Shown here in pieces: positions 126 through 10,799 of a stretch of 12,167 nt of DNA. Source of the stretch: a virus (lineage: Duplodnaviria > Heunggongvirae > Uroviricota > Caudoviricetes); IMG/VR virus record IMGVR_UViG_2744054912_000005. One strand, 5' to 3'. Position 1 is the first letter of the stretch. Every line of letters starts with the position of its first letter. A program made the position numbers and the translations under genes. The notes beneath the pieces were generated by a model. The model did no database searches. It had not been told where the DNA came from and saw only the letters and a program-made list of their open reading frames with translations.

Positions 126-1076
126 TATCAGCTCCAACTGAGAGCCATACTTTTCTTCAAATACCACGGTATCCGCATGCAGCTCGTCGTGATGCTTTCT
201 GCACAAAGGCAGCACGAAGAGGTCATGCGCTTTTGTACCCATTCCACCCTGACCGTGGCCTATCAGGTGGTGGGGATCATCTGCAGGCTTTCCACAACAT
301 GCACACGGCTGCGTCTTAACCCAGCGCGTGTACTTTTCGTTAACCCAGCGGCGACGTTTGGGACGTAACATAAAAGACTCCGGCGACTCCGGATCCACTT
401 TCAGCGCCAGCACCTTTTTCGCTTTATCCTGGATGATGCTGGTGGCAGGAACCGAAGGCACAAGGTCACTTTCCCGGGTGACAGACGGCACAACAGGCTT
501 CGGTAATCTCAGTGCCTTACGGGCTGCGCTTTCCGGTAAGGCATCCGCCAGGTCATTACGAACCAGCCACCAGCACAGTTCCGGCATTGTCACAACGTGA
601 CTGTCATCAAAACCGAGATCCCGACGCACGACAGACAACACCCAGCGGGCACAGTTATCCGTTGCCATTGATTCCAGCCGTTCCGTGAATTGATCGCGCA
701 GCTGGTTATCGCAGTGCCAGCACAGACGGATTGCGCCCGGAGCATGTCGCATTGTGGTCATGTTCTCGCTGTGCCAGCCGGAATGAGGCCACTGACAGCC
801 TTTTTCACGAAGTAACCAGCTTTCAAGACATTCCACGCCACCAGCACGACGGATCACTGCCTCATTACGGAACACGGCCCGAACGGCAGGATCATCCGCC
901 AGTGGTTGTGATGCCGCCGGAACGGCACCACTGGCAAAAGATGAATAACGTTCCGGCTCAGGCTCCAGCAGGACACGCCCCTGCATAAACAGGGGCATCA
1001 GCTCTGAACCAGGACTGAATAATACGATCCCCATACGCGGGGCAATTTCAGGGGTCAGTAGTGCTCTCACGGTCAC
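123..1076 (-). CDS. Phage nin-region protein with a C-terminal HNH-like zinc-binding motif (DUF968-like); 3' end abuts the IS3 inverted repeat, so probably C-terminally truncated
   Basis: 317-aa ORF with a C-terminal CACCGKP...HHLIGHGQGG...CRKHHDELH motif (Cys pairs plus His-His, HNH-like). GTG start at 1076 lies one base after the stop of the upstream gene (TGAgGTG); an in-frame ATG at 1034 is an alternative. The TGA stop at 123-125 is the first three bases of the IS3 terminal repeat. Confidence 0.5.
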   Translation of the reverse strand: MTVRALLTPEIAPRMGIVLFSPGSELMPLFMQGRVLLEPEPERYSSFASGAVPAASQPLADDPAVRAVFRNEAVIRRAGGVECLESWLLREKGCQWPHSGWHSENMTTMRHAPGAIRLCWHCDNQLRDQFTERLESMATDNCARWVLSVVRRDLGFDDSHVVTMPELCWWLVRNDLADALPESAARKALRLPKPVVPSVTRESDLVPSVPATSIIQDKAKKVLALKVDPESPESFMLRPKRRRWVNEKYTRWVKTQPCACCGKPADDPHHLIGHGQGGMGTKAHDLFVLPLCRKHHDELHADTVVFEEKYGSQLELI

Positions 1077-1077
1077 C

Positions 1078-1875
1078 TCAATGAACGGTATCGAGCAGCT
1101 TTAACAGCTCAGGGAATCGGGATTCGAAGAAATGCGGCTGCGTCTCGCGCGGATTTGCAGGACTGGTAATGTTCTTGCCGAACATGCAGCCTTTCGCCGT
1201 CAGCGACCAGAATTTTTTGATGTTGTTAATCGCGGTACGGCTGTATCGTTCGCGTTGTTCAACGATCCCCAGCTTCGCCATCTGGTGATATGCCTGATTA
1301 GCTGTCAGGCAGATACCATACTGCTTCAGCAGTGCACTCAGTGACAGCGTGGGGCGGCTTGAGCCATCAGGCGCGTCAGCAGGAGCATCAATGGCATAGC
1401 GCGGTGCCAGATTCGGTAAGCCAACAGCCTCCTGGAGTTTCTGACAGGCACCAAGCACTGAAGAGTTAGACAGGTTTAACTCCCGGCGCATAAAGTCCAG
1501 CAGGATCACGCCAGCCTGCATCTTGTCAGCAGCCTGCCCGGATAATTTTTCCGGTGTGCTGGTTACCATATCGAAAGTACGGATCACCTTCAGATGGAAT
1601 GACGGGCTGATCCACATTGCATAGGCATACACCAGTTCTTTGCAGACATACGTCCCTTGGTTATTTCCGCCACGAATAACGTTAACTGGCGCTATATTGA
1701 CCGAGTTGCAAATCTGCAACTCGCTTATTAAACGTTCGGTTTGCTCATTGCGGAGCCAGAATGCAGGCTTATGTTTATCCAGAGAACCGGCAGCCCTGTG
1801 CAGATCGTTCAGGCTGTAACGCCCATAAGCATCACGACGAACTTCAATACCATCAATAACCATCAGATTATTCAT
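1078..1875 (-). CDS. KilA-N domain protein (Bro-N/antirepressor-like)
   Basis: 265-aa ORF. The N-terminus MNNLMVIDGIEVRRDAYGRYSLNDLHRAAG matches the KilA-N signature (IDG..VR.D..GRY.LNDLH.A.G). ATG at 1875 is preceded by a GAGGAG RBS. Confidence 0.6.
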   Translation of the reverse strand: MNNLMVIDGIEVRRDAYGRYSLNDLHRAAGSLDKHKPAFWLRNEQTERLISELQICNSVNIAPVNVIRGGNNQGTYVCKELVYAYAMWISPSFHLKVIRTFDMVTSTPEKLSGQAADKMQAGVILLDFMRRELNLSNSSVLGACQKLQEAVGLPNLAPRYAIDAPADAPDGSSRPTLSLSALLKQYGICLTANQAYHQMAKLGIVEQRERYSRTAINNIKKFWSLTAKGCMFGKNITSPANPRETQPHFFESRFPELLKLLDTVH

Positions 1876-1894
1876 ACTTCGTTTCTCCTCTTAA

Positions 1895-2284
1895 TCAGGC
1901 GGCTGCACCCGCCGGTTTCTCGTACTTACTGATAGTGATCTCGACCTTCCCTTCCGGGATAACCGGTCCCCACTCCACCAGCATTCTTTTCACCTGACTG
2001 TCGTCTTCCCACACACCCGCGTGGGTCAGGGCGTCAAACAGCGCCTTGTTATAGTTGTCCAGATCGCGGATCCGGTTATCCGGAGGAAACAACACGATCT
2101 CCACTGAAGCAGGTGCCGACGTTGGTTTTGGCAGACGACGTAACTGCTCAACTATTGCTGCACACGCCGCGCTCTGGAATTTGCGCCCCGCCGCGCTTAT
2201 CAGGCTCTTACCAGCAAACGCCCCTTTGTTGGGGTGTCGCCAGTACGTGTTCACGCTGGGCGGAAAAGGCAGGATCAGCTTCAT
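1895..2284 (-). CDS. rusA: Holliday-junction resolvase RusA
   Basis: 129-aa ORF carrying the RusA signature DLDNYNKALFDALTHAGVWEDDSQV (compare E. coli RusA [25 protein letters not shown]). ATG at 2284 overlaps the upstream stop as ATGA. Confidence 0.85.
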   Translation of the reverse strand: MKLILPFPPSVNTYWRHPNKGAFAGKSLISAAGRKFQSAACAAIVEQLRRLPKPTSAPASVEIVLFPPDNRIRDLDNYNKALFDALTHAGVWEDDSQVKRMLVEWGPVIPEGKVEITISKYEKPAGAAA

Positions 2285-2607
2285 ACTTTCAGGCCCCTCT
2301 CATGTAACCAGTGGGCTGCACGCAGCCTGGCGTTTTCCTCACCGGCAAGCAGTGAGCGGATAATCCCGACCGCCTCGCTGTCGTCGTCCTTCACCGCGGT
2401 ATGAAGCGTTATCCCCCGTGCCACGCCACGCTTTATCGTGATGACGCCTTTTTTCTCCAGTGCGCGAAGATGCTCCACCGCTGCATTCACTGAACGGTAT
2501 CCCAGCATGGTAGCCACCTCCTGATTGGTTGGCGGGAAGCCACGTTCTTTCTGATAAGAAATCAGCATATCCAGCACCTGCTGCTGGCATTGAGTTAATG
2601 TCGTCAT
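2281..2607 (-). CDS. LexA-like winged-helix DNA-binding protein (LexA N-terminal domain only, no S24 peptidase domain)
   Basis: 108-aa ORF; LTQCQQQVLDMLISYQKERGFPPTNQEVATMLGYRSVNAAVEHLRALEKKGVITIKRGVARGITL aligns by eye to the LexA DNA-binding domain ([62 protein letters not shown]). No Ser/Lys peptidase domain follows. ATGA coupling at both ends. Confidence 0.7.
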   Translation of the reverse strand: MTTLTQCQQQVLDMLISYQKERGFPPTNQEVATMLGYRSVNAAVEHLRALEKKGVITIKRGVARGITLHTAVKDDDSEAVGIIRSLLAGEENARLRAAHWLHERGLKV

Positions 2608-3257
2608 GCCGCCATCTCCCTGACCAGTTTTTCCGCCTGCTGGCGAACCTGCGCCAGAAACGCCTCACCACATGTCTCAAGTTCATCGCGCCCGATGTAG
2701 CTGATTGCCGGTCCCTTCCAGGTCTTATCGAAAACAGCAATAGCACCAGCGAAGAACGCTCCTGTCGGCACCTGCTTCTCGTCTTTCGGGATAAACCAGA
2801 CAGGCAGTTCAAAACCAATACGCCCGCGAATAAAAGCAATATGGTCTGCATCTTCCGGCCACCACACTTCGCTGGTGGCAGCTTTGATCAGGAAAACATA
2901 GCGCCCGCCCTTATCACGCATGGCACTGGCATGTTTCATGATGTAACGCATGCCGGTGATGTATTGCCCCTCATGCTGACTGGCGCGGCTGTATGGGGGA
3001 TTACCAAAGGCAGCACCTTTAAGCTCCGCAAGACGTTCTGACCAGTCATGCGCCAGCGCGTTGTCTTCCGCCGTGTAATACGCGGCACATTTGGCGTTAT
3101 CACCGTCAGTGAACAGATCCAGAACAAACGGGCCAAACAGGGTGTTAATTCCCCAGAAAATGTTGTCCGGCGTGCGCCACTGATCGCCCACTTCCTTCAG
3201 TTCATGGGCTGGTTTGTTCCGCAGTTCCACCAGCGCCTGGCAATATTTATTACTCAT
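2604..3257 (-). CDS. Phage-type DNA N6-adenine methyltransferase (Dam family, orphan)
   Basis: FGNPPYS catalytic motif IV (N/DPPY) in a 217-aa protein. ATG at 3257 overlaps the upstream stop as TAATG; the ORF track's longer 3290 start is a GTG inside the upstream gene. Confidence 0.8.
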   Translation of the reverse strand: MSNKYCQALVELRNKPAHELKEVGDQWRTPDNIFWGINTLFGPFVLDLFTDGDNAKCAAYYTAEDNALAHDWSERLAELKGAAFGNPPYSRASQHEGQYITGMRYIMKHASAMRDKGGRYVFLIKAATSEVWWPEDADHIAFIRGRIGFELPVWFIPKDEKQVPTGAFFAGAIAVFDKTWKGPAISYIGRDELETCGEAFLAQVRQQAEKLVREMAA

Positions 3258-3745
3258 TAAGCCCCCACGTAATTCCCTGACAGATACCACTCTTCACCCG
3301 ATGCAGCGCGCTTGCTGCTTTTCCGTAAGCACCGCTCACGACGCGTCAGAAAATTGTTTCGTTCTGGCTGGGAGTGGCTTTCACGGAATGCCGCCATCCA
3401 CACGGTTGCAGCACGACGGTATAAGCCCCTGGACTCCAGTTCTTCCGCCTGGCGGGTCAGGCACAAAATCACACGGGGATCGTTAGTGCCGACATAGAAA
3501 TTGCGCACAGGTCTGGTTTCACGAACTGGTTGTGGTTCCGGTTCCTGCGCTCTCTCAGTCAGGCGCGGGAAATGTCTGCGTGTATCTCCTTCACAACGGT
3601 GAGCCACACGCCCACTCTGACGTAACTTGCTTGCTGACTGCAGAACGCGCTGCCGTGAGTAACCGGCAAAAGCATCCGCAATATCTCCGGAAGTACAGCC
3701 CGGATGGGCTTCAATGAATTTCTGAACGTCATTCAAAAGACTCAT
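3257..3745 (-). CDS. Hypothetical phage regulator: N-terminal winged-helix-like region plus C-terminal PerC/Pch-like motif
   Basis: ORF with ATG at 3745, three bases after the O-like stop and preceded by a GGGGGTGA RBS. The C-terminal LESRGLYRRAATVWMAAF resembles the PerC-family signature (L..KG.WRRAA..W) as I recall it. Assignment is tentative. Confidence 0.45.
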   Translation of the reverse strand: MSLLNDVQKFIEAHPGCTSGDIADAFAGYSRQRVLQSASKLRQSGRVAHRCEGDTRRHFPRLTERAQEPEPQPVRETRPVRNFYVGTNDPRVILCLTRQAEELESRGLYRRAATVWMAAFRESHSQPERNNFLTRRERCLRKSSKRAASGEEWYLSGNYVGA

Positions 3746-3747
3746 GC

Positions 3748-4689
3748 TCACCCCCTGAATCCTGCCGGGATCTGGCTGTAGTCCACGTTGTCGTAACTGG
3801 CTTTGAAGTACGGGTCTTCGCGTTTTTCGGTGTACGTGCTGACGGACGGCGATAAGCGCAGGGAAAGCTCATCCCATTTTTCCCGCAGCTTCGACGGGCT
3901 GAGCACGTTACGGCACCAGAACGGATCGCGACTGACGCGGCTGTACATCTCGCAGATTTGTTTATGAGTACGACCATCCTGCACACACATCAGGCGAATT
4001 TCGTTTGCCCAGGCTGTCCAGTTCGGTTCTTTGGGACGAACCACCTCGCCGTCACATTCGGCGGCCTGCTCGTACAGGGCGATGATTTTTTTCCAGAGCC
4101 ACTGTGCGCAGGTCAAATCATCCTGCGTTCCCCACTGGCGCTTTTTAGGGCTGAATACAACCGCATCAGGATGGCGAGTTAAAAACTCCTGTTCAGCCGT
4201 CTGCGTGTCCGGTTGCGAAGCGTCCGGACGAGAAGTTTTTTTATCTGACGGATCATGTTTTGATTTTACTGACGGATCCCCGCCAGATTCTGACGGGTGA
4301 AAACCCGCTTTTTTGCCAGATTTCGACGCATCAAATTTTGACGGGTCAGATTTTGATGCGTCAGATTTTGACGGGTCAGAATCTGACAGTTGAGAAAATG
4401 CCGCTGCCTGAAGCTTCGCAACGTTAAGCTGATAAACATTCGACGCATTGCGGTTACCCTGGCGACGCGCCTTACGCGTTAACCAGCCTTCTGCTTCCAG
4501 CCGTGCGATAGCCGTTCTGACGGTACTCATTCCCGCGCCAATCTGGCGGGCAATGGTTTCAATTGATGGCCAGCACACACCTTCGTCATTACTGAAATCA
4601 GCCAGGCGGGCCATAATTGCCACGCTGGATAATTTCATGCCTGATGCAGCGCAACCATCCCATACATAGCCGGTTAATTTAGTGCTCAT
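3748..4689 (-). CDS. Replication initiator, lambda O-like (N-terminal wHTH, repeat-encoded linker, C-terminal domain)
   Basis: 313-aa ORF. The N-terminal LSSVAIMARLADFSNDEGVCWPSIETIARQIGAGMSTVRTAIARLEAEGWL is typical of phage replication-initiator wHTH domains. A low-complexity SDSDPSKSDASKSDPSKFDASKS linker is encoded by iteron-like DNA repeats, the same arrangement as the lambda O gene and ori. RBS GAGGT before ATG 4689. Confidence 0.7.
   Translation of the reverse strand: MSTKLTGYVWDGCAASGMKLSSVAIMARLADFSNDEGVCWPSIETIARQIGAGMSTVRTAIARLEAEGWLTRKARRQGNRNASNVYQLNVAKLQAAAFSQLSDSDPSKSDASKSDPSKFDASKSGKKAGFHPSESGGDPSVKSKHDPSDKKTSRPDASQPDTQTAEQEFLTRHPDAVVFSPKKRQWGTQDDLTCAQWLWKKIIALYEQAAECDGEVVRPKEPNWTAWANEIRLMCVQDGRTHKQICEMYSRVSRDPFWCRNVLSPSKLREKWDELSLRLSPSVSTYTEKREDPYFKASYDNVDYSQIPAGFRG
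4261..4395. repeat. Iteron array (putative origin of replication) inside the O-like gene
   Basis: About six to seven direct copies of a ~16-bp unit related to TCAGATTTTGACGGGT, for example gattttactgacggat, gattctgacgggtga, gatttcgacgcatcaa, attttgacgggtcaga, ttttgatgcgtcaga, ttttgacgggtcagaa, seen directly in 4261-4395. Confidence 0.75.
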
Positions 4690-4698
4690 GACCGACCT

Positions 4699-5037
4699 CT
4701 ATTTCCCTGAATTTACGACGAAACTGTTCGAGCGGGCTGAAGCACTCATGCTCATAGCCTTCGCGGAGGTAGATAACCCGTTGTGTTTCCGGCTCCCAAC
4801 GAATGACTCTGACGGGCACTCCGTAGTGATCTTTGAACCAGCGGTTAACTTGTCGCAAAGGAATGTCTCCTTTTGCCGGTTGAAATCACCCACAGCCCAC
4901 TCTGCAAAGCTGTGGGTTACAATTTCCCTGTCACCTGGTACATTCACTGCATAGCAATATTCCACCTTCGCTTTTCCACCCGGTACAGGAAGCGCAATCA
5001 GTTGCGAGCGACGGTAGTGTGTTGTTAAACTGTTCAT
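4699..5037 (-). CDS. Hypothetical small early protein; the 3' portion is probably out of frame (possible frameshift, or two overlapping small genes)
   Basis: ATG at 5037 overlaps the CII-like stop as ATGA, which supports the N-terminal part. Downstream of about 4870 this frame becomes low-complexity, while another frame (4858..4679, TTG start 8 nt after AAGGAG) encodes a protein-like 59-aa sequence ending in TAA overlapping the O-like ATG. Confidence 0.35.
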
Positions 5038-5585
5038 GCGTTAGTTTCTCCACAGTCACGACACGCCACGGCGCCCGGAGCTGCACACTCGCGGGCGTCA
5101 TTACTTTCTGAAATGCAAAAAATTTTGTAGACCAGTGCTGCATGCTCCTGCAGCTTCGAAATTGAGAGGTACAGCTCATCGTTAATTGCTGTCTTCTCAT
5201 GCGGTTCCACTACACCGTCTTCAATTGCTGAACGAATCTGTTTTGAATAACTGCCGATCTGTTCAATGACCTCCAGCAGGCGTTGGTTGATATCGGCGTT
5301 GTCCACATCCTCGACATCAGGAAGAGACACAAAGACGCCATTTGCAGACTGCGCCACAGCGTCAGCAATGAAGTGAGTTCCACCAGCACGTTGCAAAATC
5401 ATTGCCCATCCCAGCGGGAAAATCTGATCGCCATCGGCACGAAGGCGGTTAAATAATGCGTTCTCTGTTACATCCAGCCAGTCAGCAGCTTCAGCGTACC
5501 CCCCCGGCAACGCTGCGATAGTTTTTCTGACAGCTTTCACGTACCACTCAGGCTGTTTTTCTACTTTCCAGTGATGCTTACCCAC
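5034..5585 (-). CDS. CII-like/YdaT-like early regulatory protein (tentative)
   Basis: 183-aa ORF immediately downstream of the Cro-like gene, with GTG start at 5585 preceded by a strong AGGAGG RBS. Position and size fit the cro/cII (YdaS/YdaT) module; no motif verified. Confidence 0.4.
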
Positions 5586-5838
5586 GGTTCACCTCCTGTT
5601 CCTGTGGTTTAAACCCATTCTGGTTTTGGCTAGATTGAAAACGTGCCGGATAAAGAATCTGCATTTCGCTGACTTCACCCTTAAAAAAATTGGCTAAACG
5701 TTCTGCAAGCTCGATAGATGGAATCTGCTCCAGCCTCTCAATACGACTCAACGTCGCTGGATTGACTTGAACACCCGCAGCAACATGCTGCAAAGTGAAA
5801 CCATGCGCCTTACGCACATTTCGTAATGGTGATTGCAT
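5578..5838 (-). CDS. Cro-like HTH (XRE family) transcriptional regulator
   Basis: 86-aa ORF with HTH signature LRNVRKAHGFTLQHVAAGVQVNPATLSRIERLEQIPSIELAERLANFF. Divergent from the cI-like gene across an operator-rich region. RBS GGAGG before ATG 5838. Confidence 0.7.
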   Translation of the reverse strand: MQSPLRNVRKAHGFTLQHVAAGVQVNPATLSRIERLEQIPSIELAERLANFFKGEVSEMQILYPARFQSSQNQNGFKPQEQEVNRG

Positions 5839-5935
5839 ATGCCCTCCAAATATTGCGCGTTATGCATGTTATTTCACGCAATTATTTTGCGCAAGTTGAT
5901 TTGCTTATCACGCAATAAAGAAATGTAATAAACGC
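5839..5935. promoter_or_regulatory. OR region: divergent PR/PRM promoters with TTGC-N7-GCAA operator sites
   Basis: Operator-like 15-mers TTGCGCGTTATGCAT (5853-5867) and TTGCTTATCACGCAA (5901-5915) plus the palindromic core TTGCGCAA (5887-5894). Candidate PR for cro on the minus strand: -35 TTGCGC (5894..5889), 17-bp spacer, -10 TAACAT (5871..5866). Confidence 0.6.
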
Positions 5936-6628
5936 ATGAACATAGGAAACCGAGTCAGACAACTTCGCCAAGCGAAGAACATGAAAATCGCCGATCTCGC
6001 TGAAGCAATAGGAGTAGATGCGGCGAACATCTCGCGCTTAGAAACGGGTAAGCAAAAACAATTTACCGAACAAACACTGAGTAATATTGCCAAGAGCTTA
6101 GGTGTTGATATTGCTGATCTCTTTACCTCTGCCCACAAAAGTAATACTGTATATAAAAACAGTAATAATGAGGATGTTGCGCAGGTGAAGGATGTGTTCC
6201 GTATTGAAATGCTGGATATCAGTGCCAGTGCGGGAAATGGCCTTATCCAGGGCGGTGATGTCATTGATGTGATTCATGCCATCGAATACAGAACTGATAA
6301 TGCTGTATCAATGTTCGGCGGACGACCAGCCAATCACATCAAAGTTATCAACGTTCGTGGGGACAGTATGTGTCCAACCATTGAGCCAGGAGATCTCATC
6401 TTCGTTGATGTCAGCATCAATCAGTTTGATGGTGATGGTATATATGTCTTTGGTTTTGATGACAAAATATACGTTAAAAGACTTCAAATGATTCCTGACA
6501 AACTGCTGGTGATTTCTGATAACCAGATTTACCGTGAATGGGGAATTACTAGCGAAAACGAACACCGATTCATGGTCTTTGGAAAGGTCTTAATCAGTCA
6601 GTCGCAAACCCTTAAGAGACATAATTAA
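5936..6628 (+). CDS. Phage CI-type repressor (N-terminal XRE HTH, C-terminal S24 LexA-like autopeptidase domain)
   Basis: 230-aa ORF. HTH NRVRQLRQAKNMKIADLAEAIGVDAANISRLETGK; candidate Ala-Gly cleavage site in ISASAGNGL; catalytic Ser in VRGDSMCPTIEPGDLIFVD and Lys in IYVKRLQ, as in LexA and lambda CI. Confidence 0.9.
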   Translation: MNIGNRVRQLRQAKNMKIADLAEAIGVDAANISRLETGKQKQFTEQTLSNIAKSLGVDIADLFTSAHKSNTVYKNSNNEDVAQVKDVFRIEMLDISASAGNGLIQGGDVIDVIHAIEYRTDNAVSMFGGRPANHIKVINVRGDSMCPTIEPGDLIFVDVSINQFDGDGIYVFGFDDKIYVKRLQMIPDKLLVISDNQIYREWGITSENEHRFMVFGKVLISQSQTLKRHN

Positions 6629-6647
6629 CCTCAATATCCCATCCATC

Positions 6648-6670
6648 GGCCACCGAAAGGTGGCTTTTTA
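6648..6670 (+). terminator. Intrinsic terminator downstream of cI
   Basis: GGCCACC-GAAA-GGTGGCT hairpin (6-7 bp stem, GAAA tetraloop) followed immediately by TTTTT, 20 bp after the cI stop. Confidence 0.8.
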
Positions 6671-6682
6671 TTACCTATAAAT

Positions 6683-6733
6683 TTGCATATATCGCAAATA
6701 TCACTTGCATATCTCGCAATTTAATTTTATCTT
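6683..6733 (+). promoter_or_regulatory. OL/PL-like region: two 15-bp palindromic operators and a candidate rightward promoter
   Basis: TTGCATATATCGCAA (6683-6697) and TTGCATATCTCGCAA (6705-6719), centre-to-centre 22 bp, sharing the TTGC-N7-GCAA form of the OR sites. Candidate promoter: -35 TTGCAT (6705-6710), 17-bp spacer, -10 TATCTT (6728-6733). Confidence 0.6.
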
Positions 6734-6889
6734 TTGTTCCAGACCAACTACAGGATTACAACAAAATCTGGTTGCAACACGGTGCATGTGTCGTAAGCAG
6801 TCAGTAAATGTCAAAAACGAACAGGCAGGACGCCCACGAAGTAGCCGCCTGGGGCATATGAAGTCCAGGATGATTCGTTAGCAACAAAA

Positions 6890-6922
6890 AAGCGCCCTAC
6901 AGGACGCTTAGCTCTTTAACAA
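6890..6922 (+). promoter_or_regulatory. nut-like antitermination element: short hairpin followed by an rrn-type boxA
   Basis: GCTCTTTAACAA at 6911-6922 is identical to the E. coli rrn boxA core (TGCTCTTTAACAA). It is immediately preceded by an imperfect hairpin AAGCGCC-CTACA-GGACGCTT (6890-6909) and lies about 45 nt upstream of the first early-left gene. Confidence 0.55.
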
Positions 6923-6967
6923 TCTGGTCCCCATCAACAAGTAACTGATAACTTGAGGAGATGTGAA

Positions 6968-7174
6968 ATGCACAAAACAGAACCCAAAATCGTCGCGCCT
7001 GGCTACACAGATGAGGAAATTTATGAGTGGATGACAAAGAAGCTGGCAGCTATAAACCAGCTTCGTGAAGTGCTGTCTTATCGACAGGAAACAATAGACT
7101 CCTTAAAAAAACTGGATCAGGAAATCACGGTTTTATCACAGGATGTTACTTTAGATATTGTGCAGACAAATTAG
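6968..7174 (+). CDS. Hypothetical 68-aa protein (first gene of the early-left transcript); no recognisable domain
   Basis: ATG at 6968 preceded by GAGGAG at 6955-6960; the TTG at 6953 in the ORF track is a less likely start. Predicted helical, charged protein MHKTEPKIVAPGYTDEEIYEWMTKKLAAINQLREVL... in an AT-rich segment. Confidence 0.55.
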   Translation: MHKTEPKIVAPGYTDEEIYEWMTKKLAAINQLREVLSYRQETIDSLKKLDQEITVLSQDVTLDIVQTN

Positions 7175-7580
7175 GATCCCATTCATTTTCGTCAAAATCA
7201 TCAAAGTGATGAATTTGTGATCTCCAGTCTCGATAATCTAAAAATTTCTGGGCGGTTACGCTTATTTTATCAAGTGTGAGTTCATCCTGAATTGAAAGAA
7301 GAAGTTCATCAAATTTCATCTCATTAATCTGTTTTGGCATCCAGTGATGCTTCATCAGAATAAGGTGAACCAGAGCCTTTTTCCCATTCAATTGATTATA
7401 GGGAGTGCCGAATTTCTTCCGGTGCTCATGTAAGACAAGGTCCAAAAGAGTAAGTAATGTTGCCCTTGATTCAACTTTGCTTATTTCGACTGATGACACT
7501 ACCCCACTGATTTCAATGCCCCGATACTTTCCAACATTTTCACAGTGGGATTTGTACAGCGTATAGATATTACCGGACAT
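7146..7580 (-). CDS. Hypothetical 144-aa protein, antisense to the early-left transcript; no recognisable domain
   Basis: ATG at 7580 with RBS AAGGA upstream. AT-rich. The 3' end overlaps the convergent 68-aa gene by 29 bp (7146-7174). Soluble, with no transmembrane segment evident. Confidence 0.55.
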   Translation of the reverse strand: MSGNIYTLYKSHCENVGKYRGIEISGVVSSVEISKVESRATLLTLLDLVLHEHRKKFGTPYNQLNGKKALVHLILMKHHWMPKQINEMKFDELLLSIQDELTLDKISVTAQKFLDYRDWRSQIHHFDDFDENEWDPNLSAQYLK

Positions 7581-7595
7581 TTCTTTTCCTTTTGC

Positions 7596-7645
7596 GTTGT
7601 TGGGGATAACCAGATTAACCGAATCCTTGTTGTTGGGGAATAACT
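7596..7645. repeat. Two direct copies of a 15-16-bp motif (GTTGTTGGGGATAAC / GTTGTTGGGGAATAAC) upstream of the 144-aa gene
   Basis: Seen directly at 7596-7610 and 7630-7645, spacing 34 bp, within 20-65 bp upstream of the 7580 start codon on the minus strand. Confidence 0.5.
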
Positions 7646-7864
7646 AGGTCCACCTCGCCTGATGTGGCTAAAAGCAGGCACATAACAGCTAAGTATTTTC
7701 AACCAGAGAGAATCCTTAGCGTTGTGGTGAATGCGGCTCAGCGCACGCGGGTTAAGGTTGAGGCTGACAGTCGACCTTCTGTGGATACCCACCCGCCTGG
7801 TGTGCAACCTTCGCCAGGCACCGGGAGGCACCCGGCACCACAACTTTATGCTGTGTGTAGTCCT

Positions 7865-7912
7865 GGCGGTACCAGTTTGTACCCTTGCTTCCGGCTGGTA
7901 CCGTCCTTTTTA
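7865..7912 (+). terminator. Intrinsic terminator-like hairpin with T-run at the end of a GC-rich non-coding stretch
   Basis: CGGTACCAG (7867-7875) pairs perfectly with CTGGTACCG (7895-7903), extendable to 7865/7905, followed by CTTTTTA (7906-7912). The 19-nt loop contains further GTACC self-complementarity. Confidence 0.55.
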
Positions 7913-8000
7913 CAAAACAGAGAAGAGCATCACCGGACGACGGGCTCATAACCCAATCCATCCGGGCGGCTGCCACCGCAGGTGTTCTTCTCTGTTTTGT
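7912..8000 (+). other. Long hairpin / inverted repeat: 18-bp stem (17 Watson-Crick pairs plus 1 G-U) enclosing a ~50-nt GC-rich loop
   Basis: ACAAAACAGAGAAGAGCA (7912-7929) is complementary to TGTTCTTCTCTGTTTTGT (7983-8000) with a single G-T wobble. It lies in non-coding sequence between the terminator-like hairpin and the YfdR-like gene. Confidence 0.5.
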
Positions 8001-8124
8001 GGAGAAACTAACCGCCCCTACGGGGGCATTTATGGAAATGTAATTGACTCAATAATCGCCGGACGGTGATGGCTTCCTTTTACCCGAATTCAGCGCGGTG
8101 CAGCGCATATACGTGGAGAACAAA

Positions 8125-8661
8125 ATGTCATTTATTAAAACTTTTTCCGGGAAGCATTTTTATTATGACAGGATAAATAAAGACGACATCGTTATTAACG
8201 ATATCGCGGTTTCCCTTTCAAATATCTGTCGCTTTGCAGGACATCTTTCACACTTCTACAGTGTCGCCCAACATGCGGTGCTTTGCAGCCAGCTGGTGCC
8301 GCAGGAATTTGCTTTTGAAGCTTTAATGCATGATGCAACAGAAGCATATTGCCAGGACATCCCCGCACCACTGAAACGACTTCTTCCTGACTATAAACGG
8401 ATGGAAGAAAAAATAGACGCCGTAATCCGTGAGAAATACGGGTTACCTCCTGTTATGAGCACGCCAGTGAAATATGCCGATCTCATTATGCTGGCAACCG
8501 AACGCCGCGATCTCGGGCTTGATGATGGCTCTTTCTGGCCTGTGCTGGAAGGTATCCCGGCAACAGAGATGTTCAACGTGATTCCACTGGCTCCAGGCCA
8601 TGCCTACGGGATGTTTATGGAACGCTTTAACGAATTATCGGAGTTACGCAAATGCGCATGA
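8125..8661 (+). CDS. yfdR: HD-domain phosphohydrolase, YfdR-like 5'-deoxynucleotidase
   Basis: 178-aa ORF from ATG 8125 (GGAG RBS 7 nt upstream) with the HD-domain motifs H...HD (HFYSVAQHAVL...ALMHDATEAY). The sequence closely matches my recollection of E. coli CPS-53 prophage YfdR (MSFIKTFSGKHFYYD...). Confidence 0.75.
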   Translation: MSFIKTFSGKHFYYDRINKDDIVINDIAVSLSNICRFAGHLSHFYSVAQHAVLCSQLVPQEFAFEALMHDATEAYCQDIPAPLKRLLPDYKRMEEKIDAVIREKYGLPPVMSTPVKYADLIMLATERRDLGLDDGSFWPVLEGIPATEMFNVIPLAPGHAYGMFMERFNELSELRKCA

Positions 8662-9014
8662 ATGTTTTCGAAATGGAAGGGTTTCTTCGTGGGAGATGTG
8701 TACCGCGAGATCTGAAAGTGAATGAAACGGATGCTGAATACCTGGTGCGTAAATTCGATGCGCTTGAAGCTAAATGTGCAGCACAGGAAAACAAAGTAAT
8801 ACCAGTGTCAACTGAACTGCCACCAGCAAATGAAAGTGTTTTGTTATTCGATGCTAACGGAGAAGGCTGGCTAATTGGCTGGCGTTCTCTCTGGTACACC
8901 TGGGGACAAAAAGAAACCGGAGAATGGCAGTGGACATTTCAGGTCGGGGACCTTGAAAACGTCAATATCACTCACTGGGCAGTAATGCCAAAAGCACCGG
9001 AGGCTGGAGCATAA
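8652..9014 (+). CDS. Hypothetical phage protein (YfdS-like, possibly DUF551)
   Basis: 120-aa ORF overlapping the YfdR-like stop, with GGAG RBS; Trp-rich C-terminus (GEGWLIGWRSLWYTWGQKETGEWQW). Same size and position as YfdS next to YfdR in CPS-53. Confidence 0.55.
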   Translation: MRMNVFEMEGFLRGRCVPRDLKVNETDAEYLVRKFDALEAKCAAQENKVIPVSTELPPANESVLLFDANGEGWLIGWRSLWYTWGQKETGEWQWTFQVGDLENVNITHWAVMPKAPEAGA

Positions 9015-9319
9015 TGACCACTTTTACCGACAAAGAACTGATTAAAGAAATTAAAGAGCGTATCAGCAGCCTTGACGTGCGAGACGATATTGAGCGCCGT
9101 GCTTATGAAATCGCACTCCTATCTCTGGAAGTAGAACCAGATGAACGCGAAGCTTATGAATTATTCATGGAAAAGCGTTTTGGTGACTTAGTAGATCGTC
9201 GGAGAGCAAAAAACGGCGATAACGAATACATGGCATGGGATATGACTCTCGGTTGGATCGTCTGGCAGCAACGAGCTGGTATCCATTTCTCAACAATGTC
9301 ACAGCAAGAGGTGAAATAA
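9014..9319 (+). CDS. Hypothetical phage protein (YfdT-like)
   Basis: 101-aa ORF whose ATG overlaps the upstream stop as TAATG, with GGAGG RBS. Size and synteny match YfdT. Confidence 0.5.
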   Translation: MTTFTDKELIKEIKERISSLDVRDDIERRAYEIALLSLEVEPDEREAYELFMEKRFGDLVDRRRAKNGDNEYMAWDMTLGWIVWQQRAGIHFSTMSQQEVK

Positions 9320-9669
9320 TGGAGCCATACAGCCTCACACTCGATGAGGCCTGTCATTTTCTCAAGATATCCAGACCGACTGCCATTAACTGGATACGCA
9401 CAGGGCGTCTTCAGGCAACACGCAAAGATCCCACTAAGAATAAATCTCCTTACCTCACAACACGACAAGCCTGCATTGCGGCTCTTCAGTCTCCGCTGCA
9501 TACTGTCCAGGTGAGCGCGGGTGATGGCATAACAGAGGAAAGAAAATGTCACTCTTCCGCAGAGGTGAAATATGGTACGCCAGTTTCACATTGCCGAACG
9601 GTAAAAGATTTAAACAGTCTCTTGGAACAAAGGACAAAAGGCAGGCGACAGAACTCCATGACAAGCTAA
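9319..9669 (+). CDS. Excisionase / AlpA-family HTH DNA-binding protein (Xis-like)
   Basis: ATG at 9319 overlaps the upstream TAA. The N-terminal [26 protein letters not shown] is a typical excisionase/AlpA HTH motif. Open to 9669, overlapping the integrase start by ~124 nt in another frame. Confidence 0.6.
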
Positions 9670-10709
9670 AGGCTGAAGCATGGCGGGTCAGCAAACTTGG
9701 TGAAATACCTGATATAACGTTCGAGGAAGCGTGTGTCAGGTGGCTTGAAGAGAAAGCACATAAAAAATCACTGGACGATGACAAAAGCCGGATCGGATTC
9801 TGGCTTCAACATTTCGCAGGAATGCAACTAAGAGACATTACTGAATCAAAAATTTATTCAGCAATGCAGAAAATGACGAACCGGCGTCATGAGGAAAACT
9901 GGAAACTCAGGGCAGAAGCATGCAGAAAAAAAGGGAAACCTGTTCCAGAATACACGCCAAAACCAGCGTCCGTTGCAACGAAGGCTACGCATCTTTCATT
10001 TATAAAGGCCCTACTAAGAGCCGCAGAGCGTGAATGGAAAATGCTGGATAAGGCACCAATTATTAAAGTGCCTCAACCAAAGAATAAACGGATCCGCTGG
10101 CTGGAGCCCCATGAAGCACAAAGGCTGATTGATGAATGTCCGGAGCCATTAAAGTCTGTTGTTGAATTTGCACTGGCAACAGGCTTAAGACGCTCGAACA
10201 TCATCAACCTTGAATGGCAACAAATAGATATGCAGCGCCGGGTGGCATGGATAAACCCGGAAGAGAGTAAATCAAACCGCGCAATTGGCGTTGCGCTGAA
10301 TGATACTGCATGTCGCGTATTGAAAAAACAAATCGGGAATCATCACCGTTGGGTATTTGTGTACAAGGAAAGCTGTACCAAACCAGACGGAACGAAAGCG
10401 CCAACAGTAAGGAAGATGCGGTATGACGCAAACACAGCCTGGAAAGCGGCGCTGAGACGGGCTGGTATTGATGATTTCAGATTTCACGACTTGAGACACA
10501 CCTGGGCAAGTTGGCTGGTTCAAGCCGGAGTCCCGTTGTCAGTGTTACAGGAAATGGGAGGCTGGGAGTCTATCGAAATGGTTCGTCGATATGCTCACCT
10601 TGCACCTAATCACCTTACCGAACACGCACGGCAAATAGACTCGATCCTGAACCCATCGGTCCCAAATTTGTCCCAGTCAAAAAATAAGGAAGGTACTAAT
10701 GATGTGTAA
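9546..10709 (+). CDS. Tyrosine site-specific integrase (lambda-family)
   Basis: 387-aa ORF with the typical N-terminus [34 protein letters not shown] and C-terminal catalytic region [11 protein letters not shown]...[15 protein letters not shown] (Arg, His-x-x-Arg, Tyr). RBS GAGGAAA. The 3' end abuts the tRNA 3' end. Confidence 0.9.
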
Positions 10710-10723
10710 CTTATTGATTTAAA

Positions 10724-10799
10724 TGGTGCCGATAATAGGAGTCGAACCTACGACCTTCGCATTACGAATGCGCTGCTCTACCAACTGAGCTATATCGGC
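10724..10799 (-). tRNA. thrW: tRNA-Thr (anticodon CGU)
   Basis: Minus-strand sequence GCCGATATAGCTCAGTTGGTAGAGCAGCGCATTCGTAATGCGAAGGTCGTAGGTTCGACTCCTATTATCGGCACCA folds as a cloverleaf with anticodon loop TTCGTAA (CGU), T-loop GGTTCGACTCC and 3' CCA. It sits beside proA as thrW does in E. coli. Confidence 0.9.

Follow-up and report, generated by a model that had tools for sequence, protein, structure and literature searches.

The put sites of the lambdoid phages HK022 (putL and putR) and HK639 (putL) are cis-acting antiterminator RNAs that bind the zinc-binding domain of the RNA polymerase beta' subunit. Antitermination of this class is factor-independent and is blocked by rpoC mutations in the zinc-binding domain. 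A second described system uses boxA. In the leaders of ribosomal RNA (rrn) operons and of clustered regularly interspaced short palindromic repeat (CRISPR) arrays, NusB-NusE, NusG, NusA and SuhB form a Rho-resistant complex at boxA (PMC5725501, PMC12360218), for which the functional consensus is GYTCTTTAANA (PMC5725501). Lambdoid phages of the N-less type (LLS, ST64B, phiNP) are described by Casjens and colleagues (2025) as having no N homologue and no assigned early antiterminator, and they 'may' use a put-like RNA (PMC12315714). The locus presented here belongs to such a phage. It is a 33-nucleotide segment (positions 6890-6922) carrying a hairpin and a boxA in the early-left leader of IMG/VR record IMGVR_UViG_2744054912_000005 (Caudoviricetes).

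The window is the whole stretch of DNA that was analysed and is 12,167 nucleotides in length. It holds the immunity and early region of an N-less lambdoid prophage of the SfII/SfIV/SfV type from Shigella/Escherichia coli, and its plus strand is 'leftward' in lambda terms. An earlier note, made from the sequence alone, had described the segment as an rrn-type boxA with a hairpin before it and had read the two as one rrn-style unit. The segment is instead the junction of two elements working on opposite strands, directly 3' of a 62-nucleotide leader RNA. In the reading preferred here, the hairpin is a minus-strand terminator, the boxA is an orphan nutL boxA that would counter Rho, and the leader RNA would handle an intrinsic terminator farther downstream. 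This combined reading is given a probability of about 0.55.

The boxA element and the adjoining hairpin

The boxA sequence GCTCTTTAACAA is present exactly at 6911-6922 on the plus strand. It is the sole exact copy in the window, where the runner-up has two mismatches, and the chance expectation for the exact 12-mer is approximately 0.0015 in 12 kb on both strands. As RNA, it reads GCUCUUUAACAA, which is the rrn boxA core noticed earlier and fits the functional consensus. Each of the 5426 complete E. coli genomes contains the rrn core TGCTCTTTAACAA as part of a 47-nucleotide rrn leader sequence, and the median copy number is seven. NusB-NusE binding to this 12-mer is established biochemistry. 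The element is in sense orientation to the predicted, operator-flanked early-left promoter (PL) and lies about 170 nucleotides 3' of it, close to the 180 nucleotides first estimated. A conserved UCUGG (6923-6927) follows directly. No second copy of boxA (nutR-type) was found in the window.

The hairpin and boxA together (the island) were compared in 26 distinct variants, picked by the leader RNA and the hairpin without reference to boxA. At one mismatch or less, boxA is kept in 24 of the 26 (19 exact, four C10A, and one C2A), and every boxA-keeping variant except C2A falls within the functional consensus. The same 26 variants have 12 versions of the four-nucleotide hairpin loop, and their flanks diverge completely past UCUGG. 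Because the 12-mer is near-invariant while the adjacent loop varies freely, boxA is, on this comparative evidence, under purifying selection in the E. coli/Shigella lineage even though boxB and N are gone.

Species-representative genomes give a similar picture. A consensus boxA lies in sense within 278 nucleotides after the leader RNA in 17 of 93 contexts, with about 0.05 expected by chance, and the 278 nucleotides around these 93 leader RNAs contain no antisense and no upstream boxA. This enrichment exceeds 300-fold and is confined to one orientation and one position. Among the relatives, boxA always follows the cI-type gene, the promoter and the leader RNA and is in sense to them. The boxA is conserved in related prophages, the check that the earlier note had called for. 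Across 767 kb of prophage flanks from species-level genomes (L326-L426), 27 boxA-consensus matches were counted, 17 of them in the PL leader; some of the remaining 10 may be nutR-type sites. A 14-mer scan with AGCTCTTTAACAAT in viral contigs returned mostly chance matches in coding regions and is useful only for the hairpin-bearing subset.

This pattern marks boxA as a genuine plus-strand element and not a chance match. The absence of boxB and N, together with a degenerate boxA in two relatives (L198, L217), could be taken to mean a chance match or what is left of a lost and decaying nutL, in either case without a function today. Such an origin is very improbable for a 12-mer that stays near-invariant across 24 variants beside a loop saturated with changes, and that is enriched in a single orientation and position.

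The small hairpin that had been noted before boxA is present at 6890-6909 (AAGCGCCC-TACA-GGACGCTT), immediately 5' of it. Read on the minus strand (6909-6884), it is composed of the stem AAGCGUCC/GGGCGCUU, a UGUA loop and a U6 tail. The stem has eight pairs including one G-U, a U-G wobble on the minus strand where the plus strand has a C.A mismatch. The minus-strand fold reaches -12.1 kcal/mol, that of the plus strand -7.5 kcal/mol. The T6 tail exists on the minus strand only, and a terminator scan calls the hairpin on that strand. The loop is UUCG on the minus strand in Klebsiella phage Kp4882-1, and no variant has lost the A-run (the T-run of the minus strand). The hairpin therefore belongs to the minus strand.

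A G+C-rich stem-loop, a U-tract and a position downstream of a gene on the same strand, as in Rho-independent terminators, are all found at 6909-6884 of the minus strand, and the same stem recurs as a terminator, with no boxA beside it, in many unrelated phage contexts. By these features, the hairpin is the intrinsic terminator of convergent accessory genes and not a boxB analogue. It would end the transcript of the convergent 144-amino-acid gene before an antisense run into PL, the operators (OL) and cI. On the plus strand the hairpin would let PL transcription pass, since it is weak there and lacks a U-tract.

The island was found in 28 distinct contexts, approximately 190-260 nucleotides 3' of a cI-type repressor gene and in at least six immunity types. 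Next to it, in almost all of the 28, is the 3' end of a minus-strand open reading frame (ORF) of about 150-170 amino acids, drawn from at least four or five unrelated families. A convergent ORF lies within the next 100-600 nucleotides in 21 of 21 boxA contexts versus 18 of the 82 that lack boxA (Fisher p 1.5e-11, indicative only, as the loci are related and not independent). Some of the 18 are false negatives in which the island is located further downstream. The hairpin is missing from five of the 17 species-level boxA contexts, and loci L342 and L372 have boxA alone.

That the hairpin and boxA form an rrn-style boxB-boxA site acting as the primary early antiterminator of the phage is quite improbable. 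The order and spacing do resemble those of rrn leaders, with the hairpin ending 1-2 nucleotides before boxA, and the window is without an N gene. However, the hairpin is selected on the other strand, boxA occurs without it in relatives, and even rrn operons gain little from their boxB (PMC12360218). SfII has no island, and Nus/boxA complexes are known mainly to act against Rho, not against strong intrinsic terminators like that at 7865-7912.

The close association with the terminator raises another alternative, a boxA without Nus function, which is unlikely but deserves to be taken seriously. The approximately 20 nucleotides of AUCCAGAUUGUUAAAGAGC (minus strand) would then be the 3' untranslated region (UTR) of the convergent genes. 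They could be the body of a 3'-UTR-derived, Hfq-type small RNA (sRNA) ending in the hairpin and U-tail, or a recombination linker of mosaic modules. Fusion of boxA to the minus-strand terminator in 12 of 17 and in 19 of 21 copies fits a 3' UTR or linker, as does the location of the island exactly at the mosaic breakpoint 6879/6880 relative to SfII, and boxA is dispensable in equivalent contexts. An A/U-rich flank directly 5' of a hairpin with a U6 tail is the usual 3' anatomy of an sRNA, but no Rfam sRNA matches the minus strand. The island stays constant beside at least five unrelated accessory-gene families and therefore travels with the PL leader and not with a particular gene. Also at odds with a 3' UTR or linker are the boxA copies in the same leader without a hairpin and within canonical boxA-boxB-N nut sites, the retention of all variants but C2A inside the NusB/E consensus, and the complete lack of antisense occurrences.

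The 62-nucleotide leader RNA

The leader RNA occupies 6817-6878 on the plus strand. Its closing stem, P1, pairs 6817-6821 with 6874-6878. P2 (6824-6826 with 6832-6834) is a small invariant hairpin, GGC-AGGAC-GCC, with an AGGAC loop. An invariant single-stranded stretch, CCACGAAGUAGCC, lies between P2 and P3, the latter a 5-bp hairpin (6848-6852 with 6865-6869), and the element ends in GGAUGA. P1 exists as GCGAA/UUCGC, as CCACC/GGUGG in mEp237, and as CAUC/GAUG in others. The arms of P3 covary freely (CCUGG/CCAGG, CCCCA/UGGGG, CUACC/GGUAG and others).

An alignment of 47 distinct sequences was made with MAFFT, and the structure was obtained with RNAalifold. Compensatory changes are present in 10 of 13 pairs and 97.2% of the cells are paired. 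Double-change cells number 86, versus 18 +/- 3.7 in shuffles (0 of 500 reach 86) and 15 or fewer in slid controls. The covariance model scores 99.7 bits at 6817-6878 and identifies no second copy (putR analogue) in the window. The fold of the whole leader (6740-6968) has ordinary stability, with a z-score of 0.12, and the element is visible only from comparative data. An Rfam 15 scan of 5400-8200 at E<=10 gave no match at 6811-6925 and only an STnc100-like match further downstream.

The leader RNA is widespread. Of 5426 complete E. coli genomes, 1531 (28%) carry it, without a PGAP annotation, and it is common to SfII, SfIV, SfV, ST64B, phiNP, ZF40, YeP1, mEp237 and many prophages. About 100 stretches carrying it were collected across Enterobacterales, including Xenorhabdus, Photorhabdus, Yersinia, Serratia, Pantoea, Erwinia, Pectobacterium, Citrobacter and Klebsiella. 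It is always downstream of a cI-type repressor gene, and in many relatives it starts a few nucleotides from the PL start. The island accompanies it in only about a quarter of the relatives that bear it, and SfII, which has no boxA, retains it.

The leader RNA is more plausibly the missing antiterminator than boxA is. The earlier note had allowed for direct use of host Nus factors or for an unrecognised antiterminator RNA. The evidence favours this proposal, with the correction that the RNA candidate is upstream and not downstream. The 'downstream structured region' that the note had included in its reporter test is an STnc100-like sRNA with its own terminator. In the literature covered on put-like RNAs, RNA-mediated antitermination and prophage boxA (King et al. 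2011 lies outside it), neither the leader RNA nor the orphan-boxA arrangement is described.

A second conserved leader module was observed in Klebsiella-type prophages, between the leader RNA (or the promoter) and the island. Its consensus is roughly GCRCA..GGUGCGAYAGGU.AAACGUUCCGC.GG.C.GCG.UA..GGCA, with small stems that apparently covary (GCAC/GUGC, and CGCUGG/CCAGCG versus CGCGGC/CCGGCG). It is located in L004 (approximately 2455-2505), L061 (approximately 4070-4120), L138, L154, L164 and L325 (approximately 2055-2090). L004, L138 and L164 have it without the 62-nucleotide RNA.

The early-left region and the candidate mechanism

The features of the early-left region are as follows.

5936-6628, in plus-strand order: cI, HTH plus S24 peptidase
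6648-6665: cI terminator, from the terminator scan
6683-6697 and 6705-6719: OL operators, two exact TTGC-N7-GCAA palindromes that are a direct repeat of each other
6705-6733, plus strand: predicted PL, with -35 TTGCAT (6705-6710), a 17-nucleotide spacer and -10 TATCTT (6728-6733); start near 6740
6817-6878, plus strand: leader RNA (62 nucleotides), from the covarying alignment
6884-6909, minus strand: intrinsic terminator, from the terminator scan and fold energy
6911-6922, plus strand: boxA, exact match
6968-7174, plus strand: 68-amino-acid gene, YdfC-like, phrog_1744
7146-7580, minus strand: 144-amino-acid convergent accessory gene ('moron'), ECs1072 family, NCBIfam NF033230
7691-7913, plus strand: STnc100-like RNA, Rfam RF02076, ending in the intrinsic terminator 7865-7912

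PL is inferred from a reading of the sequence and from its overlap with the operators. A consensus promoter scan leaves the site at 6705-6733 unflagged, with a match at 8 of 12 positions, and relatives have clearer promoters directly 5' of the same leader RNA. The earlier placement of PL is backed by the two exact operators; the third and last exact TTGC-N7-GCAA copy in the window (5901-5915) is in the cro/cI intergenic region. The minus strand carries cro and a CP76-type cII, and the STnc100-like RNA is followed on the plus strand by yfdR-like, xis and int genes.

Identity between the window and Shigella phage SfII is 98-99% over 498-6879 and 7650-10769. The two diverge at 6879/6880 and rejoin at 7649/7650, and 6880-7649 is a mosaic module. 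The first breakpoint is one nucleotide past the closing stem of the leader RNA, and the second is just 5' of the STnc100-like RNA. The SfII counterpart of the module (L001, 6381-6876) is a different segment of about 500 bp, with its own small ORFs on both strands and neither hairpin nor boxA.

The 68-amino-acid protein, correctly named as the product of the first downstream gene, matches phrog_1744 over its full length (E 6e-35), and its relatives are annotated 'YdfC family'. Its start codon is 45 nucleotides after boxA. The 144-amino-acid gene (NCBIfam NF033230, E 1.7e-46; phrog_5286, E 1.5e-90) is inside the mosaic module and absent from SfII. Pfam and PADLOC gave no matches for either protein, and no defence or exclusion role was assigned. 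The two genes overlap tail to tail by 29 nucleotides (7146-7174), and their transcripts are therefore mutually antisense. A second hairpin, at 7039-7064 within the 68-amino-acid coding sequence, has a perfect 9-bp stem (GAAGCUGG...CCAGCUUC) with a fold energy of -15.6 kcal/mol and a z-score of -4.9. On the minus strand it is about 80 nucleotides past the stop of the 144-amino-acid gene, with UUUGU after it; transcription of this gene may meet a first, leaky terminator here.

As the earlier note had stated, no N-like gene is present: the window, which covers part of the prophage, contains no credible arginine-rich ORF. The sole arginine-rich N-terminus in it (2339-2686, minus strand) belongs to an out-of-frame ORF inside annotated genes and was rejected.

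No credible plus-strand ORF was found between 7175 and 8097, a stretch that is antisense to the 144-amino-acid gene and then holds the STnc100-like RNA. The latter scores 43.1 bits against RF02076, for which the gathering score is 47 (E 2e-7), and a weak DicF-like match lies within it at 7852-7906. A 112-amino-acid ORF at 7731-8069 (annotated SfII_35 in SfII) overlaps this RNA, has no protein family match and is probably not a gene. The plus-strand terminator at 7865-7912 (-23.8 kcal/mol, z-score -3.8) is strong and precedes yfdR, xis and int, so PL transcripts must read through it.

In the proposed course of events, inactivation of cI would release a PL transcript that folds the leader RNA, a candidate polymerase-modifying element. 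The transcript would then pass the hairpin, weak on this strand, and expose boxA. NusB-NusE(S10) would bind there and, together with NusG, NusA and SuhB, give a Rho-resistant PL elongation complex. Such resistance would protect approximately 900 nucleotides after the 68-amino-acid gene that are antisense to the 144-amino-acid gene, then non-coding, and essentially untranslated. Read-through of 7865-7912 would fall to the leader RNA. The features of an N-independent boxA are found at this site: a consensus match, a promoter-proximal position (relative to the predicted promoter) on the transcribed strand, and a long untranslated stretch that follows. The boxA of the window is thus an orphan nutL boxA at which Nus factors probably load without N.

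The distance from boxA to the 68-amino-acid gene also suggests the opposite effect, with NusB/E bound 45 nucleotides 5' of the gene, repressing its translation, promoting Rho termination and damping the early-left operon. A negative boxA of this kind, as in the suhB leader, is improbable here. The boxA is within the 50 nucleotides before a start codon by which suhB-type targets were defined (PMC5725501), as is the consensus boxA of the suhB 5' UTR, and a Shine-Dalgarno sequence (GAGGAG) is present at 6955-6960. In some contexts boxA does promote Rho-dependent termination (PMC12360218). Most island-bearing relatives, however, have a convergent gene and no plus-strand ORF after boxA, and therefore the spacing from boxA to a ribosome-binding site is not the conserved feature; unlike in suhB, the downstream ORF itself is not conserved. 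The same boxA is, in addition, part of positive nut sites in Xenorhabdus. In the portion of the supplementary boxA table of Baniulyte et al. that was covered, there is no prophage ydfC-like entry, and one E. coli S88 entry has boxA 3 nucleotides upstream of a cII gene.

Several observations weigh against the combined reading of minus-strand terminator, orphan boxA and antiterminator RNA. The corresponding region is free of boxA in mEp460 and in SfII, a phage that has been isolated and sequenced. In three loci (L291, L269, L238) neither hairpin nor boxA is present and the leader RNA leads straight into the same accessory-gene or ydfC-like arrangements, and L198 and L217 retain the hairpin next to a degenerate boxA. 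BoxA-less and degenerate loci such as these mean that boxA is an accessory element and not the core antitermination device of this phage type. Most boxA copies travel with the hairpin, so their conservation could in part be hitch-hiking or minus-strand 3' UTR selection. If the leader RNA is put-like, its own suppression of Rho could make boxA redundant. The leader RNA matches no put covariance model in either direction, and N-like genes accompany it in 11 of 192 contexts; it therefore need not simply replace N.

The locus is relevant to N-less lambdoid prophages of E. coli, Shigella and Salmonella. These include the O-antigen-converting SfII, SfIV and SfV, Salmonella ST64B, and phages annotated as Stx2-converting that match the immunity region of the window. 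Within about 110 nucleotides, it offers two mutable candidates, a covarying leader RNA and a consensus boxA without boxB or N, through which reporter fusions can directly probe early antitermination in N-less phages. If the reading holds, phage early transcription would join rRNA and CRISPR arrays, the cases described so far, as a target of N-independent boxA/Nus antitermination. The arrangement also suggests how a convergent accessory gene can fit into the operon: the one-way terminator would protect the immunity region, and the Nus-loading site may let the lytic transcript cross the gene in antisense. The main value of the finding is that it points to an unannotated and very widespread leader RNA.

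Comparison with known systems

Antitermination by boxA/Nus and by cis-acting antiterminator RNAs are both known kinds. The back-to-back arrangement of an orphan boxA and a convergent terminator in an early-left leader is undescribed in the searchable literature, which did not extend to King et al. 2011.

Compared with the boxA of rrn and CRISPR leaders, the site has an identical core 12-mer, a promoter-proximal leader, a long untranslated RNA after boxA and a hairpin before it, and no phage protein is needed. It differs in belonging to a phage early-left operon, in its fusion to an opposite-strand terminator and in being optional among relatives. No boxC was identified, and Nus binding at this site is a prediction.

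Like the nutL of lambda and P22, the site is between PL and the first early-left gene and matches in its boxA sequence. Unlike nutL, it has no boxB 3' of boxA and no N-like protein in the window, and its only hairpin is 5' and on the other strand. No hairpin, and hence no boxB with a GNRA-like pentaloop, was found in 6923-6967, and the 68-amino-acid protein is phrog_1744 and not a cognate N.

Xenorhabdus prophages have the same leader RNA with canonical nut elements (boxA with boxB and/or an N-like protein). At L393 (4304-4420), boxA is followed by a 4-nucleotide spacer and a lambda-type boxB, GCGCUGAAAAAGCGC. In L384 and L394, boxA is accompanied by a different hairpin and by an N-like protein that contains an RR(Y/F)ERRA motif (phrog_271, E 3e-6; PF25694 just below its cut-off). 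Nine further N-like contexts are without a consensus boxA. By its sequence contexts, boxA is a recurrent partner of this leader family and, in some lineages, part of a classical nutL.

The leader RNA was also compared with put. Short motifs are shared with HK022 putL and putR and with the annotated HK639 putL (CGAAC..GGC and AGGAUGA). Homology to put on the basis of these motifs was rejected, as covariance models fail to cross-detect in either direction. The leader RNA model (R1) has no match to HK022 or HK639 put, and a model of putL, putR and HK639 putL (R2), of low power with only three sequences, has no match to the leader RNA. The topologies differ as well: a closing stem with two hairpins in the leader RNA, and two tandem stems with a triplex in put. 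Unlike put, the leader RNA sometimes co-occurs with N-like genes.

In its setting the leader RNA resembles the putL of HK022 and HK639. It is located right after PL in the early operon of N-less lambdoid phages, is of similar size (60-75 nucleotides) and has invariant unpaired nucleotides. As in HK639, it exists as a single left-operon copy. From these comparisons, the leader RNA appears put-like in position and possibly in role, and not a member of the put family. Tentatively, the leader RNA, with orphan boxA as an optional helper, may be an undescribed module for protein-independent processive antitermination. It would then differ from HK022 put and represent a second class of nascent RNAs that modify the polymerase, one that serves N-less lambdoid phages such as SfV, SfII, SfIV, ST64B, phiNP, ZF40, YeP1 and similar phages.

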